Assembly: GCA_049682815.1 (NCBI GenBank)
Contig: JBAUII010000079.1
Coordinates: forward strand, 29,864-93,863
Length of the DNA: 64,000 nt
DNA from: Thermodesulfobacteriota bacterium
Lineage (GTDB): Bacteria; Desulfobacterota_D; UBA1144; Nemesobacterales; CSP1-2
Direction: 5' to 3'
The translations under genes and the position numbers were made by a program. Below are positions 7,410 to 38,271 of the stretch, in pieces (the stretch's first letter is position 1; the number at the start of each line of letters is the position of its first letter). Under the pieces are notes generated by a model. It was not told the DNA's origin. It saw only the letters and a list, made by a program, of their open reading frames with translations, and did not search any database.

Positions 7410-7434
7410 TTTCTATATATAATGTTAGATAGGT

Positions 7435-8262
7435 ATGAACGGCAAGGACAGATCAAGGGCGGTTATAATCGGCCTTTCTCTTATTGGTTTCATAGTTGCA
7501 GCTTATCTTACTTATCTCTACTATAACAAGGCGGAAACAAGCTTTTGCGTTACGGGTTCGAGCTGCGATATTGTAAGATTGAGCGGTTATTCCTCGATTG
7601 ATGGCATCCCTGTATCGCTTGTGGGTTTAATAGGTTACTTTGGGTTATTCATAATTACTGTTTCAAATATACCAGATCGAATAAAATGGTTGACGCTTTA
7701 TTTCGTATCCTTGCCTGGTTTGGTCTATTCAATTTATCTTACATATGTAGAAGTATTCGTTTTAAAAGCGATATGTTCTTTCTGCTTACTTTCAGCGATC
7801 GTTATAACAGCTATTTTTATCTTAATTTTGTTTAAGAAGCCCATAGACCTTCGGGCAAATTTTTCAAAAATTTTGCCAATCAGCATCTTCATAGTCATCC
7901 TCGTTATCTTAGGGTCACTCTTTTTCAAAAATAGCGGTGAACTCAGGGCGACTACTGCAAATGATTATCAGGTTGGACTTGCAATTCACCTTAGAGAAAT
8001 TGGGGCCACCATGTACGGGTCATTCCAGTGTCCTCATTGTCTGGCACAGAAGCACTTTTTCGGAACGGCTTTTAATTTTATCAACTATGTCGAGTGTGAT
8101 CCAAAAGGAAAGAATTCCGAGCCCTCACTTTGCATATCTAAGGGCGTAACAAGTTATCCCACGTGGGAAATAGGAGGCAAATATTATCTTGGAGCAAAAT
8201 CCCTGAAAGAACTAGCCAGAATTTCTGGATATAATAACGACAGGACGCAAAACCAAAACTAG
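7435..8262 (+). CDS. Vitamin K epoxide reductase (VKOR) homologue fused to a thioredoxin-like domain
   Basis: Multi-TM N-terminal part with loop cysteines (SFCVTGSSCDIV) and CSFC in a TM helix. C-terminal soluble domain with CPHC. This is the architecture of bacterial VKOR-Trx disulfide-forming proteins. Confidence 0.75.
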   Translation: MNGKDRSRAVIIGLSLIGFIVAAYLTYLYYNKAETSFCVTGSSCDIVRLSGYSSIDGIPVSLVGLIGYFGLFIITVSNIPDRIKWLTLYFVSLPGLVYSIYLTYVEVFVLKAICSFCLLSAIVITAIFILILFKKPIDLRANFSKILPISIFIVILVILGSLFFKNSGELRATTANDYQVGLAIHLREIGATMYGSFQCPHCLAQKHFFGTAFNFINYVECDPKGKNSEPSLCISKGVTSYPTWEIGGKYYLGAKSLKELARISGYNNDRTQNQN

Positions 8263-23231: not shown

Positions 23232-23321
23232 TTTTGTGGATTCGATTTCTAAACCTGAGTCAAGTTTTCACACTAAACTGGATTCCTTCTAAAGGCATAG
23301 TATATTCAGAAAATTTTTTAC

Positions 23322-23393
23322 TGGCGGCGGGAGGAATCGAACCTCCGACAAAGGCCTTATGAGAGCCCTGCTCTACCTCTGAGCTACGCCGCC
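23322..23393 (-). tRNA. tRNA with CAT anticodon (elongator Met, or Ile2 if lysidine-modified)
   Basis: Hand-folded sequence GGCGGCG-TA-GCTC-AGAGGTA-GAGC-A-GGGCT-CTCATAA-GGCCT-TTGTC-GGAGG-TTCGATT-CCTCC-CGCCGCC-A. G1-C72 pair and no GGG/CCC anticodon stem, so not an initiator. Confidence 0.8.
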
Positions 23394-23563
23394 AAGGTGG
23401 ACTACGTTTCAGACCAACATGAGTATTGTCAATAGTTTTTCGATGCAGGGTTTAATTTTTATATGTCGATTTGGTCAGTATATCATGGCGGGTTCAACTT
23501 TCAAGACAAAATTCGGATTTTTGTAACGACTTAGGGGCATTAGAAGCGAAACAACTTTTCCTC

Positions 23564-23592
23564 TTGATGCGCCAGGTAACTTACTTTATAAT
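23564..23592 (+). promoter_or_regulatory. Near-consensus sigma-70 promoter (TTGATG-17 nt-TATAAT)
   Basis: TTGATG at 23564-23569, a 17-nt spacer, TATAAT at 23587-23592. It points into a non-coding region. Confidence 0.5.
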
Positions 23593-23598
23593 TGATTT

Positions 23599-23692
23599 TA
23601 GACTTAACGCTTAAACTTAACGCATTTCATGCGCTATCCTCCTTTAAATTGGGAATGTCTCTAAATCCGGGAGCATTCCCTCTAAAAATTTA
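23599..23692 (+). ncRNA. Candidate small RNA, paralogue A, with AUCCUCCUUUAA anti-SD-like box and terminal hairpin
   Basis: Lies downstream of the promoter above. AAACTTAA box, ATCCTCCTTTAA (23636-23647), hairpin GGGAATGTCTC...GAGCATTCCC (23651-23680), then TCTAAAAATTT. Homologous to 36573-36670. Confidence 0.4.
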
Positions 23693-23717
23693 CAAAATGA
23701 GTTTGCTGAGAATAAAG

Positions 23718-24551
23718 TTACTTTAAACTTAAGTACTTAGAGGGGTTTAGTTTCTTGCCGTTTTTTATTATTTCATAATGCAGGTGTGTCCCAGTGGATC
23801 TTCCAGTGGAGCCTGCGTTACCAATAAGATCGCCACTCTTCACCCTTTGTCCTTCTTTCACATCTACCCTTGTCAAGTGTCCATAAAGTGTCTCGTACCC
23901 ATTTTCATGCTTGATTATTACGGTATTGCCGTAACTATAGTACCAACCTGCTCTTTGGACCAATCCGTCAGCCGTGGCAAATACTGGCTGTCTAGGTTTG
24001 GCTTCGAAGTCTATTCCGGAGTGAAAAGCCGGTCGGGATTTGAACGGATCCTTTCTGTACCCAAACCCCGATCTGATAGCGGTTTGGATCATAGGCCTAC
24101 CCAGGGGATAGCTCTTAATAACATTAAACAACTCATATATATCCTTTTCCATGCTATCAAGATAGGATAATTCCAGTCCGTCGGCCGGAATGTACTCACC
24201 TCCCACGGACAATTCCTTGTTTATGCCTTTTTTGTCAAGTAACTCTTGCATTTCCAAGAGCTTCTTTTCGATTTCTACTAACCTAGATTTCAATACAAGT
24301 TCATCTTTGCTCATTTCGTTTAGGACGTTGGACTGACTCTTCAGTTGGTCGGCCAGTTCTCTTTTCTGATGGGTACTTATTTCAGCTTTCTTGTAAAAAT
24401 TATATGCAATAATGAAAGATAGAAGTGATACCAGCGTGAGTCCAAAAAATGTGATTAGGATTATCTTAATGTGGTAAAGTTTGATGTTAAGGAATTTTGG
24501 TAGTGTGCTTTCAAATTTGAAAAAATGAATTTTATAATTTTCCCGTGTCAT
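23718..24551 (-). CDS. M23 family metallopeptidase (murein DD-endopeptidase-like) with N-terminal TM and coiled coil
   Basis: HSGIDF...HLHYEI LytM/M23 motifs. RBS TAAAGGAGGATGGGTAATG. Confidence 0.85.
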   Translation of the reverse strand: MTRENYKIHFFKFESTLPKFLNIKLYHIKIILITFFGLTLVSLLSFIIAYNFYKKAEISTHQKRELADQLKSQSNVLNEMSKDELVLKSRLVEIEKKLLEMQELLDKKGINKELSVGGEYIPADGLELSYLDSMEKDIYELFNVIKSYPLGRPMIQTAIRSGFGYRKDPFKSRPAFHSGIDFEAKPRQPVFATADGLVQRAGWYYSYGNTVIIKHENGYETLYGHLTRVDVKEGQRVKSGDLIGNAGSTGRSTGTHLHYEIIKNGKKLNPSKYLSLK

Positions 24552-24897
24552 TACCCATCCTCCTTTACAATAAGGTTAATTTATTGACCCATAAAGCGAT
24601 TGATCCTCGGACTGTGCTTGTGATTCTAAAACTTCGGCAAGCAATATAACATATTTTAAAAAAGATTTACAATATCAAATCTAAGAAATTAAAACTTTCC
24701 TCGCGCATAGGTATTTTGCAGGCCATGCATAATGCTTAAAAAAAGAAATTGATTCAAAAAAGGGCCATGCGATGATTCAGACTTCTTTGGAGTTTCTCAT
24801 CTATTACCTTGTGAGGTTTGTTATCGAAAAATTATTCGTATAGAATTGACTCAGGAGCAATTGTGAAAGTCATCTTAAAAATTCTTGAACAGACAAT

Positions 24898-25415: not shown

Positions 25416-25465
25416 TGGTGGAGATGAGGGGATTCGAACCCCCGACCTCCGCCTTGCGAAGGCGG
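25416..25465 (-). repeat. att site: displaced 3' 50 nt of tRNA-Ala (direct repeat of 36339-36388)
   Basis: tggtggagatgaggggattcgaacccccgacctccgccttgcgaaggcgg is identical at both positions by direct comparison. The flanking bases differ on both sides. Confidence 0.85.
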
Positions 25466-25487
25466 AAATATTAATCCCTAACTTATT

Positions 25488-26576
25488 CTAACTATTAGCA
25501 ATATTAATAGTGGGTTTATACAGTGTGATTGTATTGTGATTGTTAAAGTTGGGTTCCAGCATTTTTACAGCGTTTTTCTTATGTTCTTGCGAGGGATGAG
25601 TATAGTGTTTCAGCATTCTAATATCTTTATGTCCAGTTATTTCCATTACCGTAATTATATCAACTCCCTTGGTTACCAGATCCGTTATAAAACTATGCCT
25701 TAGATCGTGAGGTCGGTAGTCTTCTAATTCAACTTTATCTAAAACCCTTCTCCAAGCTTTACCTACGGAATCTTTACTACAATAATTAAACACTCTTTCT
25801 TTATCTTTATTTAAGCCACATATAACCTCATGGGCAGTAGAGTTCATGGGTACAGTTCTCTGATTGTAATTCTTAGCATCTCTGATGATCATATGGCCAG
25901 TTTCCAAATCTATATCTGTCCACTTAAGCTTAATCAACTCGCTCACCCTCATTCCTGTATTTCTAGCGACTAAAATAAAGGCCTTAAGCATTATTGGAGC
26001 ATTGTCAGTTATCTTATCAAGCGCATCGTGCGGAATGTATTTTGATTTTCTTTCATATTCCTCTGCGTTCAAAGGCTTTACTTTCTTAACATCAGAAATC
26101 GGGTTATTAGATGACTCCCCCCATCCAATAGCTCGATTAAACATGGAACGAAGTACGTTAAGTTCTCGGTTGATAGTTGATGGTTTAACTCCTTCTTGTT
26201 TTCTTAGAGATTTATATTTTTCAATTTGCCAGGAAGTAATTTGGCTTATGTTCGTATTACCTACAAATTCAAAAAACTTTCTTGTTACATGAGCTTCTCT
26301 TTTATAGCCTTTCTGATTCTCTGTAATCCAATTTAGGTACTTATCTATCAAGTTTTTAAGAGGAATATTCTTCTCGGTTCTCTGCAGTTTATATCTTCCC
26401 TGCACTACCTCACCCATTCTTGCTTTTAGGGCTTGTTCGGCTTGCCCTCTTGTAAATATTCCAACATGTCCTATTCGTTCTTTTATCTGCCTTTTATTGT
26501 TGTAGTATGCGATCCACCAACTATTACCATGTTTGAAGATGCTTCCCATACCTCTTGCTCTTTGTTTACGTGCCAT
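25488..26576 (-). CDS. int: Tyrosine recombinase / phage-type integrase
   Basis: SAM-like N-domain. Catalytic residues in ARNTGMRVSEL (R), HDLRHSF (HxxR) and LKHYTH (Y). Confidence 0.9.
   Translation of the reverse strand: MARKQRARGMGSIFKHGNSWWIAYYNNKRQIKERIGHVGIFTRGQAEQALKARMGEVVQGRYKLQRTEKNIPLKNLIDKYLNWITENQKGYKREAHVTRKFFEFVGNTNISQITSWQIEKYKSLRKQEGVKPSTINRELNVLRSMFNRAIGWGESSNNPISDVKKVKPLNAEEYERKSKYIPHDALDKITDNAPIMLKAFILVARNTGMRVSELIKLKWTDIDLETGHMIIRDAKNYNQRTVPMNSTAHEVICGLNKDKERVFNYCSKDSVGKAWRRVLDKVELEDYRPHDLRHSFITDLVTKGVDIITVMEITGHKDIRMLKHYTHPSQEHKKNAVKMLEPNFNNHNTITLYKPTINIANS
25524..25543 (+). repeat. TGTGATTGTATTGTGATTGT: candidate arm-type recombinase site (left)
   Basis: 18/20 identical, and in direct orientation, to 36193-36212 near the other end of the element. 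The internal unit TGTGATT is repeated twice. It lies inside the int 3' coding end. Confidence 0.35.
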
Positions 26577-26577
26577 T

Positions 26578-26754
26578 TTATTTTACCCCCTTACATTCTC
26601 TTTTTTTTAATAGATCCGCCATTGCTTCACGGACCAACTCCGCCATTGCTCGGCCTTCCTTCTTTGCTACCGCTTTAAGCCTGTCTAATATTTCCTCGTC
26701 TATGTGTAGGTGAAATTGGCCTAATCTTTTTTTTCTCTCTTGACGTTTCTTCAT
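26578..26754 (-). CDS. Ribbon-helix-helix (CopG/Arc-like) protein, 58 aa, immediately upstream of int
   Basis: Below the ORF-track size cut-off; my own translation is MKKRQERKKRLGQFHLHIDEEILDRLKAVAKKEGRAMAELVREAMADLLKKRECKGVK. This is a beta-strand plus two helices RHH pattern. The stop lies 1 nt before the int ATG. Confidence 0.6.
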   Translation of the reverse strand: MKKRQERKKRLGQFHLHIDEEILDRLKAVAKKEGRAMAELVREAMADLLKKRECKGVK

Positions 26755-26814
26755 AATAGATTATTATATACGAAGTAGGTATAATGTCAAATAATAAATC
26801 TATGGAGGTAAATC

Positions 26815-27165
26815 ATGGACAAAAAGACCCAAATAATAACTTTACTAAACGATATAAAACCACCGCTTTTTTTATCACCAATAGACCTTTTCCAACGACT
26901 GGTCATAGACTTATATGTGGAGTTCCGCTACATGTCTGACGATCTCGTAACTGCCGAGGATATGTTTAGAATAGCCTTACCAATTCTAGAGAGTAATATT
27001 ACCGAAGAGGATATTAAGGCATATCAGGAGCTCAAAAAAGACCCCGTAGTATGCCACCTTATGGCTAAATATCCGGTGATTAAAAAAGCTATGAGAAATG
27101 GACGCACATCACAACTCATTTACAACTTCGAGAGAAAAGTTGTTAGAAAGGATGGAGTGAATTGA
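26815..27165 (+). CDS. Hypothetical protein (island)
   Basis: Clean 116-aa ORF with RBS GGAGG at 26802. No motif recognised. Confidence 0.45.
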   Translation: MDKKTQIITLLNDIKPPLFLSPIDLFQRLVIDLYVEFRYMSDDLVTAEDMFRIALPILESNITEEDIKAYQELKKDPVVCHLMAKYPVIKKAMRNGRTSQLIYNFERKVVRKDGVN

Positions 27166-27805
27166 GTATTCGTCCTTGGATAATCAACTTAAAGTAATCA
27201 GATATATTTTGAGCAATTAGAAAAGTACGATCCTGAGAAAGAGTGTCTTTTAATTGTCCAGGCTACCGAGAATACTGATTACCACTTTGCGAAACTATGG
27301 GTTTTCACAAAAAGGGATGGATCAGTTTATAGCATAGAACGTGCCTCCTAAATGTAATGGGATTGCCTATAACAACCTAGATGAAGTAACCTTTCCAGTA
27401 GAAACGTAGATTAATAAAGCTTTACTTACCTTTATTTTAATTTACTATCCTTATTCGATTGCATTCCTATATGGTCGCGTTAGAAAATAAAGAGACAGTA
27501 TGTCCCCCATCATTCTATGCTAGGCTTTCACTGAGATCTTAGTGACGGCATAGGCTAGTCAAAGGGGGTTCATGGGGTTAAGGGGGTTCATATATGTACT
27601 TAACCCTGTTTAAATTCTCAGGGAAAAAATCAGGAAAACAGCAAACAGGGTATATAAGTAACCCTCTTATTCAAAGAAAATGCAGCCACGGCTTGTACAG
27701 AGGCCTTAAAAGGGTATTTATAGACAAGAATTTCTTGCTGGTCTTTGCAAATAAATCTTTCACGGGTCATTCCGCACGATATTCTAATAATGTATACTTT
27801 AATAC

Positions 27806-28096
27806 ATGAAAAGGTTAGCGTTCATTGTTTCATTTTTATTGGTTATGTCAATAGCGGGGGTAGCCAATGCCCAGTACACGATAAATGATGTTTACTGGGA
27901 CAAAGCAAGAGGAGAGTGGATGGTTGATGTTGAACCCTGGCCTCAGCAACCTGTGATAATTGTCCCTAACTACACATACAACGTATTCGTTCCTGCGCCA
28001 CAGTATATACTTCCCGATACTTTTGAAGTGATTATTCAGGAGCCGGTATTTGACGAAAAGCTGCTACGGGGTCTAATGTTGGACTTGCCGTACTGA
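27806..28096 (+). CDS. Hypothetical small secreted protein (island)
   Basis: Signal peptide MKRLAFIVSFLLVMSIAGVANA|QY. 96 aa. Confidence 0.5.
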   Translation: MKRLAFIVSFLLVMSIAGVANAQYTINDVYWDKARGEWMVDVEPWPQQPVIIVPNYTYNVFVPAPQYILPDTFEVIIQEPVFDEKLLRGLMLDLPY

Positions 28097-28145
28097 ATGG
28101 GTGCAAGGTGTTAGTTATTTCTTTGACGTATCGGTAGGTCGCTAG

Positions 28146-28161
28146 GATTTGAGTTGCTTGG
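28146..28161 (+). repeat. 16-nt direct repeat copy 1 (GATTTGAGTTGCTTGG)
   Basis: One of three copies of GATTT(T/G)AGTTGC(T/C)T(G/A)G in the 28100-28580 non-coding region. Confidence 0.5.
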
Positions 28162-28337
28162 CGTAACCAATTGATGTTTTAGGGATAAAGATTTAGTATA
28201 ACTACGTCCCGAGCGTCTCAGGATGCGACAGTGGTTGCTAGTGAATTTTTAGGTATAGATTAAGAGGTTGATAAATGTGTTCCTAGAGGGATTCAATAAG
28301 TTATTTTTTCTCAACCCTTACCTTAGTACCTTTTCTT

Positions 28338-28353
28338 GATTTTAGTTGCTTGG
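28338..28353 (+). repeat. 16-nt direct repeat copy 2 (GATTTTAGTTGCTTGG)
   Basis: See copy 1. Confidence 0.5.
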
Positions 28354-28489
28354 AATCTTTACCAGAGGCCATAGAATCGAAAAATAAGTCAAATTTGATT
28401 TATCCCCTTTGTTCCGATTTCACTACAAAATGTAATGCATATAAAGGAATACCTATATAGGATAAACCTTTACTTCTTTTATCTAGGGT

Positions 28490-28505
28490 GATTTTAGTTG
28501 CCTAG
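28490..28505 (+). repeat. 16-nt direct repeat copy 3 (GATTTTAGTTGCCTAG)
   Basis: See copy 1. Confidence 0.5.
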
Positions 28506-28581
28506 ATAAGGGGTGTAAGGTTGATTATATGCGTTTTCTTTTTCGAGTTCCATAGAAAAAATTGCTTTCCCTTCTCGGATA

Positions 28582-29097
28582 ATGTATTGCCATATACTTA
28601 TGATTGAGAATAACGGATGGCAAGCTAAGCCTAAGAAGAAAAAGGACTCCTACTATAAATCTATGGCTAGAGTCAGAAAGGTAAGGTATAGGCTTTCCAA
28701 AAGTGAAAGGATGGTTTTTGATGTTGAAATTGAACCTGAGTATATCGATTATAGCTTAGAAGATAAGGCGAAGATCAGCGGGTTAAGTTTGAAACGCTAT
28801 AGCGAAGCTTTTAGCAAAATGAACCGGAAACCTACAGTTAAGTTGGCGATTACAATTGGTCTGATCGAGAAAGACTTCACCGGAAATTGGTTTAGAAGGA
28901 TTAATAAATTAATTGCATGGGCTGAAGCTGAGAAGGATTACAAGTATATTTTGATTTTGGAACGAGAAAAGGCTTTGATGCCAAAGCGATTAATAGCCAC
29001 TGGAAGGGTAGCAGGCGAATCTGAGGATGATGGGAAGTCTGAACCTGAATTACCCAAGGATATGCTTCCCGACCTGGAGCGGTGGGGACAACTATAG
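28582..29097 (+). CDS. Hypothetical protein (island cassette gene 1)
   Basis: 171-aa ORF with a basic N-terminus and acidic C-terminus. A possible HTH-like stretch (ISGLSLKRYSEAFSKM) is only a guess. An internal Met (MARVRK) is an alternative start. Confidence 0.45.
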   Translation: MYCHILMIENNGWQAKPKKKKDSYYKSMARVRKVRYRLSKSERMVFDVEIEPEYIDYSLEDKAKISGLSLKRYSEAFSKMNRKPTVKLAITIGLIEKDFTGNWFRRINKLIAWAEAEKDYKYILILEREKALMPKRLIATGRVAGESEDDGKSEPELPKDMLPDLERWGQL

Positions 29098-29121
29098 TAA
29101 GTAAATTTTTAAGGAGATAGT

Positions 29122-29757
29122 ATGCCGATAAGAACATTTGATTATCGTACAGATGAAGAAAGAACGGAGCGAAATAAGATGACTTTGGAAGAGCTAGTCA
29201 GGGCAAGCACAGGCGGTCTAGGTCTAGATTCGCTCGAGGATTTTAAAAAAGCTATTGCAAGAACAGGTAAAGTTCCCATCGGTGTTTTTAATCCTGAGCT
29301 TAGACGAATAGGCATGGAGCATCTGAGCCAATATAGGGGTGGTACACCTACAAGAGCGGAATTTCCTGTTTCCAAGATAGCACAAGGTGGAGGCGAAGGA
29401 CTTAAGACATTATTGGAAGCTGCTGCTATAGGTTCAGGCAACTTAGAGAACATATCAGCTATGTTAATACCCAAATTGGGTATAGGATCTATTAATGCCT
29501 TGCGTTCCACTACGGGGTTTCTACCCATTGAACTTAGCCCTAATAGATTCACGCCAGGCGGTTTCACACAAAAGATAGATTTGGGTGCAGGCCAGAGCGG
29601 GTTCGTATTTGGACGGCAGGCAGATTTGGACTTGGCTAGAAACATGTTACAACGAAAGCAGGCACAGTTGGAATTACAGACAGGGCAGAGGAAGAGGCGA
29701 TTTGGCAAACCTCAAAAAACTTCATTAATAGCACAGTATTTAGCACAGCAGGGATAG
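29122..29757 (+). CDS. Hypothetical Gly-rich protein (island cassette gene 2)
   Basis: 211-aa ORF with RBS AAGGAG at 29111. No motif recognised. The antisense ORF 29142..29708 is judged spurious. Confidence 0.45.
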   Translation: MPIRTFDYRTDEERTERNKMTLEELVRASTGGLGLDSLEDFKKAIARTGKVPIGVFNPELRRIGMEHLSQYRGGTPTRAEFPVSKIAQGGGEGLKTLLEAAAIGSGNLENISAMLIPKLGIGSINALRSTTGFLPIELSPNRFTPGGFTQKIDLGAGQSGFVFGRQADLDLARNMLQRKQAQLELQTGQRKRRFGKPQKTSLIAQYLAQQG

Positions 29758-29758
29758 T

Positions 29759-30136
29759 ATGGCCGATAATTTGACTGATTATACAACTGAAGAGAAAATA
29801 GATGTTATAGCTGATTTTGCCAATATTGACTCTGAAAGGATTAATGACATGATTCTAAATTATGCCTCTATGTGCGTCAATGAAATAATGCCTCAAGATT
29901 GTACTGTCCGCTTCGACAAAGACTTTGTTAAACTCACTATACTTGCTTATGAGACTGCACTCGATTGTTGGTTTAAGCTGTTAGACGACTACGATGGAGA
30001 TAAAGAGAGTGGAGAAGGCTTAGAACCGCATTCAATAAATGATCAACTTTACAGCTTTAATCAACAGATTCTCCAAGCGTTTTTTGAAAGGGTAAAAGAG
30101 GAAATGAGTGAAAGCACCCTTGAGAAGCTAAACTAA
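29759..30136 (+). CDS. Hypothetical acidic protein (island cassette gene 3)
   Basis: 125-aa ORF. Its ATG lies 1 nt after the previous stop, suggesting translational coupling. Confidence 0.45.
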   Translation: MADNLTDYTTEEKIDVIADFANIDSERINDMILNYASMCVNEIMPQDCTVRFDKDFVKLTILAYETALDCWFKLLDDYDGDKESGEGLEPHSINDQLYSFNQQILQAFFERVKEEMSESTLEKLN

Positions 30137-30179
30137 TTAAGATTTATCTACGGTGTAAAAGATTGCTTTACATTGATAA

Positions 30180-30281
30180 TTATTCTCTCCAATCCCGCCC
30201 TGTAAGATGTCTCCTTATATCATAGACACAGAGAGTAATCACAATTAGACATACTGTTTGAACAAGTAGAATTTTCTCCAT
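30180..30281 (-). CDS. Candidate 33-aa hydrophobic peptide (type I toxin-like / small membrane protein)
   Basis: My own translation is MEKILLVQTVCLIVITLCVYDIRRHLTGRDWRE. It is preceded by AGGAGGAT with a 5-nt spacer and by a TATAAT about 25 nt upstream on the minus strand. It lies antisense between two + strand genes. Confidence 0.35.
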   Translation of the reverse strand: MEKILLVQTVCLIVITLCVYDIRRHLTGRDWRE

Positions 30282-30414
30282 ACTATATCCTCCTATTTTA
30301 AGCTAATTATAATTCCTTATTTAATTTATTGATATTATTGGGATTTGGATTTAATTATTGAACTGGCATGTCAGAGACAATATAATTAGGGTAACAGCTC
30401 AAGTGGGGGGAAAA

Positions 30415-31272
30415 ATGAGGCTAGGACATATAGTCCCGCTTATCTTAATAATATTTATCCCTATTTCGTTACAAGCAAAGGATGTTTATAAATGCGCTGA
30501 CAAGAACGGCAACTTTTATTACAGCACTACAATCTGCCCAGGTGGGGAGAAAAAATCTAAGCCAAATGTAATTAACACACCGTCCCAGTTAGATCAGGGA
30601 AAAACTGTAAATAAAGAAGGGGGTGATATGCCACGGTCAAAGACTATACTTGAAGATAGCCCAGAACCTTCCGATTCAAAAAATAAAATTGCTAGTGAGA
30701 TTGACGCCATAAATGCAAAAATAAAAGAACGCCAAAAGATGATGAGATTTTACGATACTAAGCAGTGTTACCAGACCTCACCACCTAATAGTGGAAGAGA
30801 AATTATCTGTGATCATACAAACAGCAAGTACCAAGCATATGCTTTGGAAATAGCAGAGTTACTCCGCTATCGTGATCAGCTCTTATTTATTCTTAATTCT
30901 GATCCGCTACAGCTTCAAAATAGAAAATTTCCCTGTCAAGTTACACAAGTTATTGATGGCGATACCTTCGACTGTATTTTACCCAATGGAGTAGAAGACA
31001 GAGTTCGATTAATTGGAGTTGATGCACCGGAATCTGGGACGACTCATGGAGATTTGGCAACCGCATATTTACAATCCTATTTAATCCCGAACACTAGTGT
31101 AACTTTGGAATTGGATGCTGAGCCTAGAGACAAATACGGACGCATACTTGCATATGTTTTTTTGGCTGATGGTACTATGATTAATGCTTTACTAGTTCAA
31201 GAAGGATATGCTACTGTAGACATATACCCGCCGAATGACAAATATGAATCCTATTTAATTAATGCTCAATGA
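30415..31272 (+). CDS. Secreted thermonuclease (SNase/micrococcal nuclease fold) with DUF4124-like N-domain
   Basis: Signal peptide from Met 30415 (MRLGHIVPLILIIFIPISLQA). DVYKCADKNGNFYYS (DUF4124-like). C-terminal VIDGDTFDC...VRLIGVDAPE...GRILAYVFL...NALLVQEGYA. Confidence 0.75.
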   Translation: MRLGHIVPLILIIFIPISLQAKDVYKCADKNGNFYYSTTICPGGEKKSKPNVINTPSQLDQGKTVNKEGGDMPRSKTILEDSPEPSDSKNKIASEIDAINAKIKERQKMMRFYDTKQCYQTSPPNSGREIICDHTNSKYQAYALEIAELLRYRDQLLFILNSDPLQLQNRKFPCQVTQVIDGDTFDCILPNGVEDRVRLIGVDAPESGTTHGDLATAYLQSYLIPNTSVTLELDAEPRDKYGRILAYVFLADGTMINALLVQEGYATVDIYPPNDKYESYLINAQ

Positions 31273-31280
31273 GTAGCCTT

Positions 31281-31514
31281 TCACCTATCAATCCATTCAC
31301 GTAATTCACCGTTTGCTTTCATTCTGATTATGAGTTCTTCCAGTCCCTCTGATATAGAAATATACCCTCCGCAACTCTCAACAATACCTTCCAGGGTGAT
31401 TTTGTACTTATCACAGTTAAGCCGCTCCCTATCCTCAGAGAAGGTTAAGTAAAAGCATTTAATACATAGCCCTTGCAATACAAGCTCTTTAATCTGATCG
31501 CTGTTGTTGTTCAT
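31281..31514 (-). CDS. Hypothetical protein (island)
   Basis: 77-aa ORF downstream of the primase gene on the same strand. Confidence 0.4.
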   Translation of the reverse strand: MNNNSDQIKELVLQGLCIKCFYLTFSEDRERLNCDKYKITLEGIVESCGGYISISEGLEELIIRMKANGELREWIDR

Positions 31515-31709
31515 ATGTCTCTTTTACTCGTTTGAAATTCTCACATTCAGGGGTAATGATATTGATTATGAGTTTTCCATTACTACTCCTTGTTTCGGTC
31601 TTATAGGTATCATCACTTATCTTTTGTATAGGTGTTGTCTTGTCCCCATTCGCCTCAGAAAATATTTTCTTTCCATTTTCGTTGACTAATTGACTAATGG
31701 GGTCACTAT

Positions 31710-34241
31710 CTAATGATTTAGGGGAGTTATATTCAAATAGTGAGTCATGACTAATCTCTGACTTATCTTGACTAATGTTTCGGCCTTAACTTCCTGTAAT
31801 GATGCACTTTTTTTTAGAAAAGTGGTATTAGTCAATGAGTCAGACTTTTCAAGTAATAATTTTTTTAACGCTTCGGGAGTTGGGAGTTTAAGTATCTCTT
31901 GGGGTATAGAAATAAACTTATATTTGCTCTTTATCCCCTTTTCGCCATTATGCTCCAAATACCCTGAATCAGCTAAAGCATAAACCTCGGTTCTAAAGGT
32001 TGTGTTGACTTTGCAATTGCATAGTTTTGCTAATTCGCTCATTGAAATCTCATCCTCTGGATGTTGCTCTTTTATCTTTTGCAGGATTTTTTCTTGTTGG
32101 GGTGTAATCTCTTTTAGGGTCTGAGACAATACCACAGTTGCTAATTCATAAGCGGTCTTATAGTCCTCAATGGTTGCCTCAAGATAGGTTTTGCCATCTA
32201 CCTCTGATTTTTCTCTCTGTTCTTGATGTAAGAGACAATGAGCTTTAATGAGATTCTCAAATCTCGTAAAATCACGTCTGCACCTAACTTTATCTACCGG
32301 AAAAGTATCCGCTAGTATTCCAAGATAGGGTACAAAAACGTCATAGGATCTTAGTAGTAACTGTAGGGCTTGATACGGCCTATTCTCCTTATCAATCATT
32401 TCGTTATTAATGGGTATTGCTTTTGATTGAAGTATTTCTCGACTCTGTTCATTGGATTCATCTATATATAAATCAAATAGCCTAGTTTGATTTTCAGGGT
32501 TTATTTGGGACTTGGTCGTAGTTTCAACATAGGTCAGTCCCCTTGCGGGGATAAATATCTCTTTTGCCTCAAAACTTCCAGTTTTCGGGTTTGGTTCTGT
32601 CACTAATTTGCTAAGTTCACCCTCTGAGATTGATGAACGAATAGGGTAATCAGCTTTCTCAGAACCATGAGATTCATATATCACAAGTATTGTATGGGAT
32701 AGGTCTAATCCTGGAAGCCTATAAAGTGCCTGAGACGATACATCCGTATATGCCCTATACACACTTTTGGGGAATACCTTTAATACGGCTTTTACTAATG
32801 CACTCTTACCGCTAGAGGATTTACCCTTGACTACATTTGAGATTGCTTCATCAAATAATCTTGAGGTAAAAGACAAAACTAGCACTCTTTTGTTTACTTT
32901 TTCGCCTATATAACCATTTCTACCTATTTGCTCTACAATCTTGTTTAATAGGTCAGGGTCTCCTAACAATTCCCTTGCTTTCCCTATTTCATCGTCTGTA
33001 TATTCGCTTAAAGGGTCGTATGGTTTCTGATCTTCTTTTGTTGTTTCAACTTCATTACATATGGCTTTTAAGTCGCTCTGTAATCCCCTCGTGCCTATCT
33101 CATGTTTCTTTGAAAGTTTGTTAATCCAGGTTTCCTTGTGGCTTGCAAGTTCCAGCTTGCTAATCTCTTTTAGTGCCTCTGGTATATCTTCATTCTCTAT
33201 AACTGCATACAGGTAATATGTGGCCTCATTTATACCTTTCTCAATTATTTCTCTAAACTTGTCAATGCCGTATTTAACTAAAAGTTCATCAAAATCCTCT
33301 TTGTAGCCTGTGTTTAGAATATATCCCCTAAATTCTTTTGCTAAGGGATAAGAAGCCTTATTGCCCGCTTCGTCTGAATCAAACGCCACGTACTTTTTAG
33401 CCTTAGATTTTAAAAGTTCATCCCTTGCGTGTTCGCCTAGATTAGTTCCTAATAATGCACAGGTATTAAACCCCGCTTTATCAAGAGCTACAGCGTCAAA
33501 TACCCCCTCCACAATGCAGCAATCATTCTTGTTTAGATTCTCTGATAGATATATTTGTTTCCGTATCAAGTCAGAGTTTCTAAGGTGTAAATACTTAGGG
33601 TTATTCTCTGTTATCGTATTATCAGGGGATGCTCTGCCGGTTAGATAGACAGCCTTTCCATGCTTCAGTATAGGGATAATTATTCTATTTCTGAAATGGT
33701 CGTAATAGCTTCCATTATTGCCTTTATTGATTAGTCCTACATCTTCAGCTATCTCTATGTCGGTTTGATCTTTTAGATTAGTGGCTACAGGGTTATTATC
33801 TCCTACATACCCTATTGAATGACGGTCAATATCGCTTTCATCTAAGCCTTTAGCCCTTAAAAATTCGATTACTTCAGGATGTTTCTTTATCTTCTTATTG
33901 GCATGGGCTGTAAATCTTTCTATTAGCTCATATGCCCGTAACTGTCTATCGAATCTCTCTTTCTCCTTAGGGGAAACTTCAGGCAAAGGTACATAATATT
34001 CCTTTGCTAATGATAGAGCAGCATCTAGGGGTGATAATCCCTTGTGACTGGCTTCCAAATCTATGATATCGGCACGTTTACGACAAACGAAACAATATCC
34101 ATGCGTACCATAGTTATGGAGTGAAGGGTTATGGTCGTCATGGAAAGGGCAGGTATCTTTCTTGCTACCATTAAATATTCCCCTATCGTTGCAATACCTT
34201 TCAAATGGTATAGCTTCTTTGACATTTTCAAATATTGACAT
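31710..34241 (-). CDS. DNA primase (CHC2 zinc finger + Toprim) fused to a P-loop NTPase domain (replication initiator of the element)
   Basis: CPFHDDHNPSLH...GYCFVCRKRADIIDL (CHC2). CCIVEGVFDAVAL...AFDSDEAGNKA (Toprim). Walker A GKSSSGKSALV in the C-terminal half. 843 aa. Confidence 0.8.
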   Translation of the reverse strand: MSIFENVKEAIPFERYCNDRGIFNGSKKDTCPFHDDHNPSLHNYGTHGYCFVCRKRADIIDLEASHKGLSPLDAALSLAKEYYVPLPEVSPKEKERFDRQLRAYELIERFTAHANKKIKKHPEVIEFLRAKGLDESDIDRHSIGYVGDNNPVATNLKDQTDIEIAEDVGLINKGNNGSYYDHFRNRIIIPILKHGKAVYLTGRASPDNTITENNPKYLHLRNSDLIRKQIYLSENLNKNDCCIVEGVFDAVALDKAGFNTCALLGTNLGEHARDELLKSKAKKYVAFDSDEAGNKASYPLAKEFRGYILNTGYKEDFDELLVKYGIDKFREIIEKGINEATYYLYAVIENEDIPEALKEISKLELASHKETWINKLSKKHEIGTRGLQSDLKAICNEVETTKEDQKPYDPLSEYTDDEIGKARELLGDPDLLNKIVEQIGRNGYIGEKVNKRVLVLSFTSRLFDEAISNVVKGKSSSGKSALVKAVLKVFPKSVYRAYTDVSSQALYRLPGLDLSHTILVIYESHGSEKADYPIRSSISEGELSKLVTEPNPKTGSFEAKEIFIPARGLTYVETTTKSQINPENQTRLFDLYIDESNEQSREILQSKAIPINNEMIDKENRPYQALQLLLRSYDVFVPYLGILADTFPVDKVRCRRDFTRFENLIKAHCLLHQEQREKSEVDGKTYLEATIEDYKTAYELATVVLSQTLKEITPQQEKILQKIKEQHPEDEISMSELAKLCNCKVNTTFRTEVYALADSGYLEHNGEKGIKSKYKFISIPQEILKLPTPEALKKLLLEKSDSLTNTTFLKKSASLQEVKAETLVKISQRLVMTHYLNITPLNH

Positions 34242-34243
34242 GT

Positions 34244-34447
34244 TTATTCCTTTGGTTCCCAGTTCCTAAAATCCCAATGTTTATTGTACGCTTCTAGCAT
34301 TATTTGCATTCTAAGGGTTTGAACATCAACGCCCTTTTTAGATGCAATTCTATATAGCAGTCTTGACAGTCTAGGGTTGCACATTGGGCACTCACTCTTA
34401 GATTTATGGTGGAAATTACCCTTAGGGTAAGTTAAAATATTGGTCAT
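34244..34447 (-). CDS. Hypothetical protein (island), stop 2 nt before the primase start
   Basis: 67-aa ORF containing CPMC. Tightly packed with the primase gene. Confidence 0.4.
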   Translation of the reverse strand: MTNILTYPKGNFHHKSKSECPMCNPRLSRLLYRIASKKGVDVQTLRMQIMLEAYNKHWDFRNWEPKE

Positions 34448-34475
34448 CGCAACATCTCCTATTTTTAAAGTTTCG

Positions 34476-34507
34476 CCCTGACTAGACTCACCTAGTCAGG
34501 GTTTTTT
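34476..34507 (+). terminator. Perfect 10-bp stem-loop with T-tract on the + strand
   Basis: CCCTGACTAG-actcac-CTAGTCAGGG-TTTTTTA. It lies between two minus-strand genes, but the U-tract is on the + strand only. Confidence 0.4.
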
Positions 34508-34518
34508 ATTGCCCTTTT

Positions 34519-34713
34519 TCAATACGGATCAATCGTTTTTTCGTCGATCATTTTCATGAGTTTATCGTATGGCACGTACACGTTGTGCCCGATTTTCAAT
34601 CTTGGGAGCTGGCCAAGAAATATTCGTTTTCGGACTGCTCCTTGGGGGATACCAAGCAGACTCGCAACTTCCGGAATCCTTAACAGCTTCGGGATTTTTC
34701 TTGTTTTATACAT
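34519..34713 (-). CDS. Excisionase-family / AlpA-like helix-turn-helix DNA-binding protein
   Basis: LLRIPEVASLLGIPQGAVRKRIFLGQLPRLKIGHNVYV matches the HTH_17-type pattern. 64 aa. Confidence 0.65.
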   Translation of the reverse strand: MYKTRKIPKLLRIPEVASLLGIPQGAVRKRIFLGQLPRLKIGHNVYVPYDKLMKMIDEKTIDPY

Positions 34714-34883
34714 TTTACTACTCCTCGATTCTAATGTGTTCTACTTGCATGTATAACGGGAAGTGCACATGACGAAATAAAAAAGCGGTAAATAAAGACT
34801 GTTAGAGATTTATCTTCTTTTAAGAAATTGGGGATTTGCTAGGGTGGAAATTTTATAGGAAGGGCCGTCAGTGGCTCTTAGTA

Positions 34884-36170
34884 TTAAATAGTTTCGTCAG
34901 TTTCTTCATAGTCTTCTTTATCAACTAATTTAGGAAACTGATTCTTGCTTGAATTTCTAAGTCGGTTAACCAATTCATGACGTGTTGCCATTTTCAGGTA
35001 CTTTTTTAGATTATTTATGCTTTTAATTTTTTCTAAGGGGATAACCGGTATTACGTTTTGGACAAGGTGGATGGTTAACTCGCTTATCCAATCATTTTCC
35101 TCTTGGAAGCTGATCCATCTCTTACCTATCGCCCCTCTTACAACTTGTTGAGCGGTTTTTTCTTTCATTAGCCATTTAAGATTTTCGCTATCACTATCTC
35201 CGATTTCTACTGCAAAGGTCTTATCGATATTTGGGCATCGCTTTTTTACCTCCAGACTCATACCTAAGCCTTTGGGGTATTTTTTCATTAGCTTCCATTT
35301 CTCCCAAATTGGTAATTTTAATATATGGACTTTTTCACTCGGGAGTTTGAGGTTGCTGAAAATTGTATTTTCGTCTATTTCTCCACTTTCGAGGAAGGTA
35401 TATCGAAAAATGAAGTTGCCGGTAAGTTTAGCCAATTTAACTCTTGCATCAGTTAATGATTCCATCATTGAAAATTCAGCAAACGCATTTTTTTCTATAG
35501 CCCACGTTAGCCTATTTTTTAGTTTTAGCTTCACAGCCCGTAGTTTTCCCTGTTTTATCCATTTATAAATTGTTTGACGTCTGTTTGATTTGATTTTTCT
35601 AATAGGTTTTGTATCTGCTAATAGCTTCCAGGGACCTAAGTTGTCGTTTTCTTCAGTTTTAACGAAGTTTAGAAGCCCTAAGACCTGTGGAATTGTCAAC
35701 AACTTCCCTTTACTGAAAAGGGACTCTGCATTTCTTTTTACGTATTCGACTCGGATTTTGTAATAAGTCTTCGGACATAGAGCCTCAATAAGGTCATACT
35801 CAATAAATCGACATTCTGGCAATTTTTTTATCCCACGCTCATATAGATTGAAAGCCGAATTGATTTCCGAATACTTCCTTAGCAATTCATTGCGAATCTT
35901 CCTAACTCTCTTATAATAACTCTTAGGGTTCTTCTCTTCATATTTTTTGCCACCAGCTAATTCAGAAATCTTCTCGGAGTCCCACCCCTTCAATATTTCA
36001 ATTATATTTTTAGCTTCTTGCCTAAAATCGACTTGGACTTTTTTAATAAACGTATCTTCTGGACTCGTTTTAAGATAATGACCAGCAATTATTCTAAACG
36101 GTCGGTAGGCAAATCTTTTAAGAAACTGGATTCGACGTTTAGTAGTCTCTAGTTTACTTTCTTGATCCAA
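34884..36170 (-). CDS. Hypothetical 428-aa protein (island) with an internal HTH-like segment
   Basis: RRQTIYKWIKQGKLRAVKL resembles an excisionase/MerR-type HTH. Nothing else recognised. Confidence 0.4.
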   Translation of the reverse strand: MDQESKLETTKRRIQFLKRFAYRPFRIIAGHYLKTSPEDTFIKKVQVDFRQEAKNIIEILKGWDSEKISELAGGKKYEEKNPKSYYKRVRKIRNELLRKYSEINSAFNLYERGIKKLPECRFIEYDLIEALCPKTYYKIRVEYVKRNAESLFSKGKLLTIPQVLGLLNFVKTEENDNLGPWKLLADTKPIRKIKSNRRQTIYKWIKQGKLRAVKLKLKNRLTWAIEKNAFAEFSMMESLTDARVKLAKLTGNFIFRYTFLESGEIDENTIFSNLKLPSEKVHILKLPIWEKWKLMKKYPKGLGMSLEVKKRCPNIDKTFAVEIGDSDSENLKWLMKEKTAQQVVRGAIGKRWISFQEENDWISELTIHLVQNVIPVIPLEKIKSINNLKKYLKMATRHELVNRLRNSSKNQFPKLVDKEDYEETDETI

Positions 36171-36192
36171 AACGATTAATCCTTACGCTAAT

Positions 36193-36212
36193 TGTGATTA
36201 TAATGTGATTGT
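36193..36212 (+). repeat. TGTGATTATAATGTGATTGT: candidate arm-type recombinase site (right)
   Basis: 18/20 identical to 25524-25543 in the same orientation. It lies about 125 bp inside the tRNA-proximal att repeat. Confidence 0.35.
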
Positions 36213-36338
36213 AAAACAGAAATTTACTGAATACAAACGCACGGAGCTGAACAGTTCCCGAACAAGAAGGCCTTATTGATAATTGGTACAACTACCTGAA
36301 ATTAAATACAAAATCCTTTAGTGCTTGTGGCTTATAAG

Positions 36339-36415
36339 TGGTGGAGATGAGGGGATTCGAACCCCCGACCTCCGCCTTGCGAAGGCGGCGCTCTCCCAAA
36401 CTGAGCTACATCCCC
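36339..36415 (-). tRNA. tRNA-Ala (anticodon CGC), CCA encoded
   Basis: GGGGATG-TA-GCTC-AGTTTGGGA-GAGC-G-CCGCC-TTCGCAA-GGCGG-AGGTC-GGGGG-TTCGAAT-CCCCT-CATCTCC-A-CCA. The G3:U70 alanine identity pair is present. Confidence 0.9.
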
Positions 36416-36537: not shown

Positions 36538-36566
36538 TTGACAACTTAAGTAAATTGCTTTATATT
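36538..36566 (+). promoter_or_regulatory. Near-consensus sigma-70 promoter (TTGACA-17 nt-TATATT) with A/T-rich upstream tract
   Basis: TTGACA at 36538-36543, a 17-nt spacer, TATATT at 36561-36566. Upstream sequence is aaattaattaattaaattaaaaaa. Confidence 0.55.
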
Positions 36567-36572
36567 AATAAT

Positions 36573-36670
36573 TGTAGTTAATTTGAAAACTTAAATCATC
36601 CTCCATCCTCCTTTAAGATAGTGGGAATGTTTCTAAGTCCTTTAGATCACTCCCACTTTTCTTTTTTATT
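36573..36670 (+). ncRNA. Candidate small RNA, paralogue B, with tandem CCUCC boxes and an intrinsic terminator
   Basis: AAACTTAA box. CATCCTCCATCCTCCTTTAAG (36597-36617). Hairpin GTGGGAATGTTTCTAAG-TCC-TTTAGATCACTCCCAC (36621-36656) followed by TTTTCTTTTTTATT. Confidence 0.5.
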
Positions 36671-36783
36671 CCACTTATTATCTTGGTAGAGAATTTACGT
36701 CGTAATTATTGACGAGAGTACGTCTGAAATTGATTCATTTCACCATGTTCCGAGTGAATTGATTTAAATGTCGCCTTGAGGGT

Positions 36784-38271
36784 TCACTTTGATGCTGCTA
36801 CTGCTCGATCTGATGCCCATCTCTCTAGTCTCGAAATCTCCTCCCGCATCGTTGTAGAGAGTGGAACTATAGAAGACGCTGCGATTATAAGTTCTCTGTC
36901 ATCCAATTCCTTTTGTTTTGAATAGGCTTCAAAAAGGGCGGATACCACGACCTGTTCAATCTCTGAACCGGAAAGTCCTTCGGTGTTCTTGGCAAGGGAA
37001 TCTAAATCGAAGGAGTCGGGATCCTTATGGCGGTTGACAATGTGAATTCGGAATATCTCTTTTCGATCTATTTTTGACGGAAGGGATACGAAAAAGATCT
37101 CATCGAACCTGCCCTTTCTCAAGATCTCCGGCGGTAGCAGGTCAATTTGATTTGCAGTGGCGGCTATAAATACGGGGTGTTTCTTTTCTTGCATCCAGGT
37201 AAGAAAAGAGCCGAATATCCTCGATGCAGGACTATCGCCTGTTTTCTCCCCGCTCCTTGTGATCCCGGCCTCGATTTCGTCTATCCATAGCACGCAGGGA
37301 GAAATTCTCTCAACGGTCTTGATTGTGTTTCGAAAGGCTTCTTCGGGTGTTCCAAACACACCGCTATAAAGTTGATTTAGGTCGAGCCGCAATAACGGTA
37401 AATTCCAAACTGAAGCGACGGCCTTAGCACATAGGCTCTTACCACAACCGCTTATTCCCATTATTAGTAATCCCTTGGGCATGTCAAGCCCATATTTCCT
37501 GCCATCCGAGCCAAATGCTAATGCCCGTGTTTTGAGCCATTCCTTTAGATTTTCCAGGCCGCCGATGTCATCCAAGCCCACTCTAGCTCTTACGTATTCC
37601 AGTGTTCCGGTTCTGTTTATCAAGAGAGCCTTCTCATCCATGAGGGATGTAACGATCTCTTCTTCACCTTTTTCTTCTCCATCCAGGAGGATCCTCCTTA
37701 GAGCAAATTTCATTTCGGAAGATCCAAGGCCCTGCAAAGCGTGAACGCATTTTTCCCTGAACTCAGGGGTATAATGATTTTGACGGCTGCTATCTTTAAA
37801 TGGAGCTGTGACTTCGTCAAATATCATCCTGGCATCATCTACATCTGGAAGTCCAATTTCGAATATGGTTATTTCCTTTTCTAATTCAGGTGGGAGGACT
37901 GCAGATGGGGAAATGATGAACAGGGTTTTAGAGCTACTTTTCAGAGTTTGATGTAGGTCCTTCAATTCCCTTATTATCTTTGGGTCTTTAAGAAAAAAGT
38001 GAAGGTCCTTAAAAAGAAAGAATCCCTTTTGATTGGTCTCCCGAACTTGTTTCAAGGCGCTTAAGGCGTCGTTGATTCCTTCTGATACCCCATTTCCTCC
38101 GCTAAACCCGTTGGTACAGGACCAGGAGTATACACTATATTCATCATGAAACGACTCCTTCGAAAGCAGTCTCAACGACTCCTCGACACGTTCTTCTTCC
38201 CAACTAATAAGGTAGATAAGTGGATATTCAGCCCTTATGCAACTTGCTATTTTGTCGGATGGAAATGCCAT
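36784..38271 (-). CDS. AAA+ ATPase (Ycf46-like architecture: about 230-aa N-domain + single AAA module)
   Basis: Walker A GISGCGKS, Walker B VLWIDEIE, second region of homology ATANQIDLLPPEILRKGRFDE. Confidence 0.7.
   Translation of the reverse strand: MAFPSDKIASCIRAEYPLIYLISWEEERVEESLRLLSKESFHDEYSVYSWSCTNGFSGGNGVSEGINDALSALKQVRETNQKGFFLFKDLHFFLKDPKIIRELKDLHQTLKSSSKTLFIISPSAVLPPELEKEITIFEIGLPDVDDARMIFDEVTAPFKDSSRQNHYTPEFREKCVHALQGLGSSEMKFALRRILLDGEEKGEEEIVTSLMDEKALLINRTGTLEYVRARVGLDDIGGLENLKEWLKTRALAFGSDGRKYGLDMPKGLLIMGISGCGKSLCAKAVASVWNLPLLRLDLNQLYSGVFGTPEEAFRNTIKTVERISPCVLWIDEIEAGITRSGEKTGDSPASRIFGSFLTWMQEKKHPVFIAATANQIDLLPPEILRKGRFDEIFFVSLPSKIDRKEIFRIHIVNRHKDPDSFDLDSLAKNTEGLSGSEIEQVVVSALFEAYSKQKELDDRELIIAASSIVPLSTTMREEISRLERWASDRAVAASK

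Follow-up and report, generated by a model that had tools for sequence, protein, structure and literature searches.

The 64,000-nucleotide (nt) stretch analysed here, hereafter the window, covers positions 29,864 to 93,863 of contig JBAUII010000079.1 from a Thermodesulfobacteriota bacterium (assembly GCA_049682815.1) and contains two related intergenic elements, copies A and B, that we examine as genes of a small RNA (sRNA) displaying an anti-Shine–Dalgarno (anti-SD) sequence. Each copy lies upstream of a tRNA gene on the opposite, minus strand (tRNA-Met at 23321-23394 for copy A, tRNA-Ala at 36339-36415 for copy B), and each is faced by a convergent protein gene, encoding an M23 peptidase (23718-24551) at copy A and an AAA ATPase (36784-38271) at copy B. 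The original prediction, made from the letters alone, described a promoter, an anti-SD box and a hairpin at copy A; all of these blocks are present at the positions given for them or within 3 nt of these, and the same ordered blocks of promoter, boxes and hairpin recur, as it had also proposed, at copy B (36538-36670; Table 1). The two copies are 77% identical across about 200 nt. A covariance model built from 15 members of the family described below scores copy A at 77.2 bits (E = 2e-13, span 23599-23698) and copy B at 84.5 bits (E = 7e-15, span 36573-36672), with no match above 22 bits in the rest of the window; given these scores and E-values, the likeness of the two copies is not due to chance.

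A family with a common layout

A genome scan, with one genome per species, for ATCCTCCTTTAA followed after a gap of 1-8 nt by GGGAATGT returned 18 loci, of which 13 carry the complete layout and five are unrelated chance matches. The 13 members derive from metagenome-assembled genomes (MAGs) labelled Candidatus Dadabacteria, Thermodesulfobacteriota or 'Deltaproteobacteria', plus one Ignavibacteriales; Dadabacteria are now a class of Thermodesulfobacteriota at NCBI. Directly 5' of the required ATCCTCCTTTAA, 13 of 15 members carry CATCCTCC, which the scan pattern did not demand (its first 8 nt were free), and because of this unrequested extension we take (T)CATCCTCCATCCTCCTTTAA to be the true conserved motif. 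A metagenome scan with the exact 20-mer yielded at least 120 loci with at least 123 distinct sequences, and among the matches listed all but two or three of these loci share the same architecture. The viral contigs searched for the motif gave no match, on which ground a phage origin was rejected.

Members are built alike: a near-consensus sigma-70 promoter is followed by a 5' part that lacks structure and holds two TTAA boxes, then by an unpaired UCAUCCUCCAUCCUCCUUUAA, a hairpin and a U-run. The predicted RNA is about 95-100 nt long. In 112 distinct promoter regions, the -35 element reads TTGACA (94) or TTGACT (18) and is preceded by an A-rich tract, while the -10 element, at a 17-nt spacer, reads TATTTT in 55 and TATATT in 27, together 82 of 112. 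Every member thus appears to have its own promoter at a fixed upstream distance, conserved across loci, with 59-66 nt from the -35 element to the start of the motif in 105 of the 112. The spacer holds a strikingly conserved TTAAG, and the two TTAA boxes, located in the first 25-30 nt, are at least 90% conserved among 91 distinct members. The 5' segment with the boxes is no more stable than its shuffles (median z = -0.06); with neither excess stability nor covariation of the box-flanking bases, the idea of a hairpin formed between the boxes was rejected. The TTAAG/CTTAAG of the spacer and the TTAA boxes may serve a regulator as operators or, in the RNA, bind a protein.

The anti-SD of members usually comprises two CCUCC units, CAUCCUCCAUCCUCCUUUAA, each preceded by CAU, and is unpaired in both single-sequence and consensus folds, so that the motif has the character of a conserved, accessible single-stranded seed, as expected of an sRNA acting in trans. 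The hairpin behaves as a genuine helix. In 91 distinct sequences, 14 of 14 pairs change on both sides, 95.4% of the hairpin cells are paired, a share that drops to 45-55% once the partners are shifted by 1-3 columns, and 0 of 500 shuffles reach any of the observed measures, in an alignment that was fitted to the model structure and therefore favours the hairpin; an independent MAFFT/RNAalifold analysis of 15 members finds the same helix. Two expectations of the original prediction, that the anti-SD is displayed unpaired and that relatives preserve the box and, through compensatory changes, the hairpin, are borne out by these results.

The members occupy at least five genomic contexts: beside an opposite-strand tRNA-Met, often followed by sco1-pcuAC and then by a convergent bactofilin-M23 pair; beside tRNA-Ala and the AAA ATPase; between lapA and an SLT transglycosylase; and upstream of a UPF0176/TrhO gene, of a gene for a 240-264-aa protein without Pfam match, of a TadA-like deaminase or of DsbD_2. 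A linkage to tRNA genes was rejected: a tRNA gene adjoins only part of the loci and is then on the other strand. Sibling copies are found on several contigs at distances of 270-890 nt (L020 5664-6111; L069 3302-3667; L054 384-1369), and in L071 (2833-5675) the siblings are 2.7 kb apart; each sibling has its own promoter, and the hairpin sequences differ while the 20-mer is identical. Many metagenome contigs break off precisely at the motif, probably because assembly fails at a multi-copy repeat. In L017 (2160-3483; orthologous in L018 and L103), about 1.3 kb without an open reading frame (ORF) of at least 100 aa separates a type-3 sRNA copy from the SLT gene.

The predicted transcript and its strand

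Because of the upstream promoter, a U-run that follows the hairpin on the plus strand only, and an excess of G-U/U-G over A-C/C-A cells in the hairpin when read on the plus strand (74 versus 21), we place the predicted transcript on the plus strand. The terminator hairpin lies on the same strand as the promoter and carries the compensatory changes described above; copy B is fully typical in this respect, and the U-run of copy A is weak. We consider it very probable that the elements form a family of plus-strand sRNA genes, which agrees with the stand-alone gene of the original prediction, its own promoter and terminator hairpin being conserved across the family. For copy A, the 5' end was placed about 7 nt past the -10 element and the 3' end after the hairpin, both as estimates.

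Table 1. Predicted features of the two sRNA copies and candidate target sites, in window coordinates
Feature	Position	Strand	Sequence and basis
Copy A promoter	23564-23592	+	-35 TTGATG 23564-23569, 17-nt spacer, -10 TATAAT 23587-23592; scan 10/12 matches
Copy A predicted transcript, ~94 nt	23599-23692	+	covariance-model match and fold; ends inferred
Copy A 5' boxes	TTAA 23604-23607, ACTTAA 23615-23620	+	family alignment
Copy A anti-SD box, single	23636-23647	+	ATCCTCCTTTAA
Copy A hairpin	23651-23680	+	GGGAATGTCTCTAAATCCGGGAGCATTCCC; minimum free energy -19.3 kcal/mol, z = -3.2; family covariation
Copy B promoter	36538-36566	+	TTGACA, 17-nt spacer with CTTAAG, TATATT; 11/12 matches
Copy B predicted transcript, ~96 nt, canonical member	36573-36668	+	covariance-model match, ortholog identity
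Copy B 5' boxes	TTAA 36578-36581, ACTTAA 36589-36594	+	
Copy B tandem anti-SD	36597-36616	+	CATCCTCCATCCTCCTTTAA; unpaired in consensus fold
Copy B intrinsic terminator	hairpin 36620-36657, U-run 36657-36667	+	hairpin, then TTTTCTTTTTT; fold, family covariation
M23 peptidase translation initiation region	24549-24567	-	UAAAGGAGGAUGGGUAAUG; best predicted target inside the window, in this lineage only
S13/PBP4-type D-Ala-D-Ala carboxypeptidase, site in 5' untranslated region	55194-55206	+	AGGAGGGUGGAG; second-best site in the window

Divergence of the two copies

Both copies have orthologs in the MAG MFD05684, L009 corresponding to copy B and L012 to copy A, with 90-92% identity over kilobases, so that the window belongs to a Dadabacteria genome. 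Copy B is 94.6% identical to its ortholog, its flanks 91.9%, and most of its few differences affect the hairpin, two of them the loop and one the 3' arm; the CTTAAG of its promoter spacer is found at 36545-36550. Copy A is 85.5% identical to its ortholog, its flanks 89.7%, and here the differences strike both the promoter, at the -35 element (TTGACA to TTGATG) and at the TTAAG of the spacer, and the RNA, at the first of its two TTAA boxes and the first of its CCUCC units. With a -35 other than TTGACA and the spacer TTAAG gone, the promoter of copy A is weaker than the family consensus; its ortholog L012 retains both. The block AAACTTAA (23613-23620) and the hairpin 5' arm GGGAATGTCTCTAAATCC (23651-23668) are in place. 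The anti-SD box that the original prediction had singled out does exist in copy A, but it is only half of what is usual in the family: GCGCU stands where the first CCUCC unit would be and creates a small new hairpin (23621-23633).

Copy B is the conserved canonical gene. Copy A, on which the original prediction was focused, is by contrast a diverging or decaying paralog with one anti-SD unit left, since its changes affect the -35 element, the spacer, the TTAA box and the CCUCC unit, its U-run is poor (UCUAAAAAUUU, 23681-23691), its covariance-model score is the lowest among all members, and fully canonical genes stand at the same tRNA-Met locus in other genomes (L001, L005, L015).

Most of the 13 kb between the copies is filled by an integrated element of about 10.9 kb in tRNA-Ala (window 25416-36388), with a perfect 50-nt direct repeat of the tRNA-Ala 3' half at about 25416-25465 and 36339-36388. 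It carries genes for a tyrosine integrase (25488-26576), an SNase-domain protein (30358-31272), a primase/Toprim protein (31710-34241) and a helix-turn-helix protein (34884-36170), as well as several ORFs lacking a Pfam match. In MFD05684, the two sRNA copies are only about 6 kb apart. That the sRNA element itself is an attachment site or mobile-element repeat was rejected, because the real attachment repeat of the island is a different sequence, namely the tRNA-Ala 3' half.

Candidate targets

The M23 peptidase gene beside copy A had been proposed as a target on the strength of an 11-nt complement to its ribosome-binding site. This complement is real, at 24557-24567 rather than 24554-24564, and the M23 initiation region is the best of the 54 in the window, at -25.9 kcal/mol against a median of about -10. 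The duplex reaches -27.4 kcal/mol with copy A and -28.6 with copy B, compared with -13.0 for the canonical 3' tail of 16S rRNA; with copy B, pairing extends over 13 nt (24555-24567), then meets one G-U pair and two mismatches and resumes for 4 nt across the AUG. What does not hold is its conservation. Among the 20 further M23 orthologs whose start could be read, 18 carry no more than an ordinary SD (-6.6 to -20 kcal/mol), which rules out M23 as a conserved target, and the values near that of the window come from L012, the closest relative (-23.4), and from L019, an unrelated locus (-25.8). As the match is lineage-specific, M23 cannot be what keeps the motif invariant. The AUG within GGAGGAUGG of the M23 initiation region (24549-24575, minus strand) opens an out-of-frame 8-codon frame that overlaps the real start and that is probably meaningless because it has no spacing from the SD.

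The second-best site in the window, upstream of the S13 carboxypeptidase gene, is a 12-bp match that spans both CCUCC units. It lies 18 nt upstream of the start, too far to act as an SD, and its absence from four orthologs led us to reject this gene as a conserved target. The SLT lytic transglycosylase beside type-3 copies was dismissed as well, as it has no complementarity.

A more promising lead comes from the 20-mer itself. Two of the matches listed, L116 and L105, are not sRNA genes, and in L116 (7529-7548, minus strand) the 20/20 complement coincides with the SD, a 7-nt spacer and the AUG of the PilQ secretin (604 aa, gene 5714-7528), encoded in a pilMNOPQ operon. L074 contains an sRNA copy together with the same pil operon (PilQ 80% identical), and in about 1 Mb of sequence the duplex at its pilQ initiation region ranks second. 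In six further relatives, pilQ pairs with the sRNA at -26.6 to -31.5 kcal/mol and with the canonical 16S tail at -13 to -15, and pilQ is the best site of its operon in five genomes beyond L116 and L074, MFD05684 included. Across nine orthologs, which are not independent, seven initiation regions reach -26.6 kcal/mol or stronger and one reaches -19, compared with about -10 for the median initiation region; the outgroup L149, with a PilQ of 1052 aa and generally weak SDs, has no pilQ match. PilQ orthologs in six related genomes retain GGAGGA(U/C)GG-type initiation regions. The evidence is suggestive of pilQ, the gene of the type IV pilus secretin, as the best conserved candidate target.

A wider view of ribosome-binding sites was taken in about 1 Mb of Dadabacteria loci, with the purposely fetched pil loci excluded. 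ATG-purine follows GGAGG in 8 of 159 initiation regions (5%) as against 8 of 1205 occurrences elsewhere (0.7%; p = 1.6e-4), an approximately sevenfold enrichment at ribosome-binding sites. The canonical 16S-complementary extension TGA (GGAGGTGA) is not enriched at initiation regions, and positions +1 to +3 after GGAGG show no graded base preference. Such a pattern suggests a limited number of sites fitted to the sRNA, and not a variant 16S tail. The extra complementarity is present at only a small subset of ribosome-binding sites, and the broad translational repressor envisaged in the original prediction is not supported. Several genes with GGAGG-ATG-purine sites encode signal-peptide proteins.

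A proposed mode of action and its alternatives

The account we favour, with moderate confidence, is that of a family of plus-strand sRNAs of about 95-100 nt that act in trans on SD and start regions, with copy B as the canonical and copy A as the decaying member. By comparison across the family, each gene carries a strong sigma-70-type promoter and an intrinsic terminator of its own, and the invariant single-stranded motif is exposed in the linker between the 5' part and the terminator. This motif is the complement of UUAAAGGAGGAUGGAGGAUGA, i.e. of an SD plus start codon, and would pair in trans with the SD and start-codon region of the subset of mRNAs that read GGAGGAUGR. Pairing would then block 30S binding, as it does for NfeR1/cuckoo, AbcR1/2, RoxS/RsaE and 6C; established regulators with redundant ultraconserved anti-SD motifs give a precedent for it (bioRxiv 10.1101/2025.11.14.688489). 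The best conserved candidate targets would be pilQ and its operon neighbours, with the M23 peptidase and the PBP4-type carboxypeptidase as possible extras in the lineage of this genome only.

Several points weigh against this account. The promoter, the 5' end and termination are all inferred from sequence. Two of the three target candidates, M23 and S13, are unconserved, so that target evidence is thin; the pilQ orthologs do not count as independent, the site at pilQ may reflect no more than a need for a strong ribosome-binding site, the pilQ match in L116 comes without a demonstrated sRNA gene in that locus, and one or two chance 20-mer matches are expected in a collection of this size. The invariance over 20 nt exceeds what a base-pairing seed usually needs, and across subfamilies it arises partly by construction, because the metagenome set was collected with the exact 20-mer. 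The conserved TTAA boxes and the spacer TTAAG are left unaccounted for. Finally, an ORF on the same strand starts about 0-150 nt past the hairpin in 61 of 89 distinct loci; three conserved syntenies make up 55 of these 61, which leaves a small effective number of independent observations.

A first rival takes the RNA for a mimic of the 16S rRNA 3' tail and not for a gene-specific antisense regulator. Such an RNA would serve as a decoy that competes globally for SDs or titrates a protein or nuclease recognising the 16S tail, an explanation we hold to be rather unlikely. It is favoured by the CCUCCUUU of the sRNA, which is identical to the universal core of the 16S tail, by a 20-mer that is wholly invariant while the remaining RNA diverges, by a promoter that is near consensus and has A-rich sequence upstream, as might be expected of a highly expressed gene, and by the several copies per genome. 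Against it, only about 5% of GGAGG initiation regions have the sRNA-specific extension and positions +1 to +3 show no graded preference, a pattern that suggests a restricted set of targets; nor do the sRNA neighbourhoods contain any candidate binding protein. The mimicry as observed covers 8 nt; the canonical 16S 3' end is GAUCACCUCCUUUCU, and a search of the collected Dadabacteria loci for a 16S 3' end found none present. A related version, a dedicated mimic without a defined regulon, in which an abundant, multi-copy 'free anti-SD' sets the genome-wide initiation threshold or acts as a decoy for a 16S-tail factor, is unlikely. If true, it would explain why 20 nt are invariant while the rest of the RNA drifts. 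A Dadabacteria 16S tail reading CAUCCUCC would favour mimicry, whereas a canonical GAUCACCUCCUUUCU would mean that the GGAGGAUGR enrichment reflects the sRNA.

The frequent downstream ORFs raise the question of a cis-acting 5' leader, in which the strong promoter and a regulated terminator (attenuator) would control sco1-pcuAC, trhO or the gene for the 240-264-aa protein. The downstream genes are functionally unrelated (SCO1, UPF0176/TrhO, TadA-like deaminase, DsbD_2), and they have no strong SD for a cis anti-SD to sequester, which excludes sequestration of a downstream SD, weak or missing as it is. A convergent gene faces 19 of the 89 loci (21%), both window copies included. Removing the 3' arm leaves RNAs at -8.5 kcal/mol, no better folded than controls in which the 5' arm was shuffled (-8.1; the terminator averages -22), and an antiterminator formed by the anti-SD with the hairpin 5' arm was rejected for want of any signal. 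Given the unrelated downstream genes without strong SD, the convergent loci and the missing antiterminator, we regard a cis attenuator as a minor and quite unlikely rival; read-through of the terminator into sco1 or trhO may occur.

Less likely still is a sponge for an RNA-binding protein that would recognise C/U-rich single strands or (C)UUAA boxes without base-pairing. The two 5' TTAA boxes, at least 90% conserved without structure, and the tandem repeat of the motif, as in protein-titrating sRNAs, would suit such a role. We know of no protein of this kind, however, and none is linked to the sRNA neighbourhoods; moreover, the motif exactly complements SD plus AUG, and initiation regions that match it exist.

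A function on the minus strand is very improbable: the motif does read there as UUAAAGGAGGAUGGAGGAUGA, an ideal SD, spacer and AUG, and an 8-codon ORF follows in copy A and L012 (MKCVKFKR and MKCVKLKG), but ORFs from either AUG range from 2 to 50 codons without a conserved peptide, so that a small protein gene is rejected for its unconserved length and sequence, and a 3' untranslated region or terminator of the M23 and AAA genes, the alternative named in the original prediction, is contradicted by the three plus-strand signals and by minus-strand genes upstream that differ from locus to locus.

Relation to known small RNAs

Base-pairing in trans, which we prefer among these readings, places the family beside several known RNAs. 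At gathering thresholds, Rfam 15 finds only three tRNAs in the window, and permissive scans of both copies give best E-values of 0.19-8.6 (12-17 bits) with unrelated models; full-text literature searches for the motif or for Dadabacteria sRNAs returned nothing relevant. Membership in any Rfam 15 family, ar14/cuckoo, RsaE, 6C and AbcR included, was rejected because no covariance model matches near its gathering score, and the remark in the original prediction that no named family could be recognised is upheld. The elements represent a well-conserved, previously undescribed sRNA family that would work like known anti-SD sRNAs and is a member of none; the anti-SD sRNA as a concept is already known.

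The closest parallel is found in the NfeR1/'cuckoo' sRNAs of alpha-proteobacteria, whose three redundant ultraconserved CCUCCUCCC anti-SD motifs silence many mRNAs at the ribosome-binding site (bioRxiv 10.1101/2025.11.14.688489); NfeR1 and its alpha-r14 relatives are encoded in trans, measure about 100 nt and occur as several paralogs per genome (bioRxiv 10.1101/2025.11.14.688489; PMC4615179; PMC3927594). The RNAs described here share with them a length of about 100 nt, redundant ultraconserved anti-SD motifs and multiple copies per genome. However, the cuckoo motifs are presented in the loops of two or three hairpins, whereas here two units stand side by side in an unpaired linker with CAU before each; there is no sequence or covariance-model similarity, and the host phylum differs. 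With a single conserved hairpin, which is the terminator, an anti-SD in the unpaired linker and the motif CCUCCAUCCUCC, the family was not assigned to cuckoo/NfeR1.

RoxS/RsaE of Firmicutes and 6C of Actinobacteria use repeated C-rich motifs to pair with the G-rich SDs of several mRNAs (PMC4409812; PMC6486639). Like these, the present family combines a conserved sRNA with a repeated C-rich motif and a Rho-independent terminator; unlike these, whose CCCC/UCCC motifs lie in loops and whose regulators and regulons are known, it carries a true anti-SD CCUCC in tandem. AbcR1 and AbcR2 are tandemly encoded sibling sRNAs with anti-SD-like seeds (PMC3712013), a tandem arrangement that L020, L054 and L069 resemble, with unrelated seed, structure and taxon.

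The tail of 16S rRNA offers a further comparison. The CCUCCUUU core, complementary to AAAGGAGG, is common to both, but here it is part of a free sRNA and flanked by CAU and UUAA in place of the canonical GAUCA...UCU. What sets the family apart from the anti-SD sRNAs named above is the tandem CCUCC in a linker, the CAU of each unit, the unstructured 5' part with TTAA boxes and the host lineage.

Dadabacteria are uncultured and widespread, with no genetic system, and this would be the first riboregulator described for them, recognisable from sequence alone and with a clear seed. The family alignment suits an Rfam-style model, which would improve the annotation of these MAGs, and the pilQ lead suggests the hypothesis that the assembly of type IV pili is under its control. 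Compared with the anti-SD sRNAs known so far, the family would add a phylogenetically distant and independent example of this design of redundant anti-SD motifs, supporting the idea that this design is a recurrent solution for translational control.

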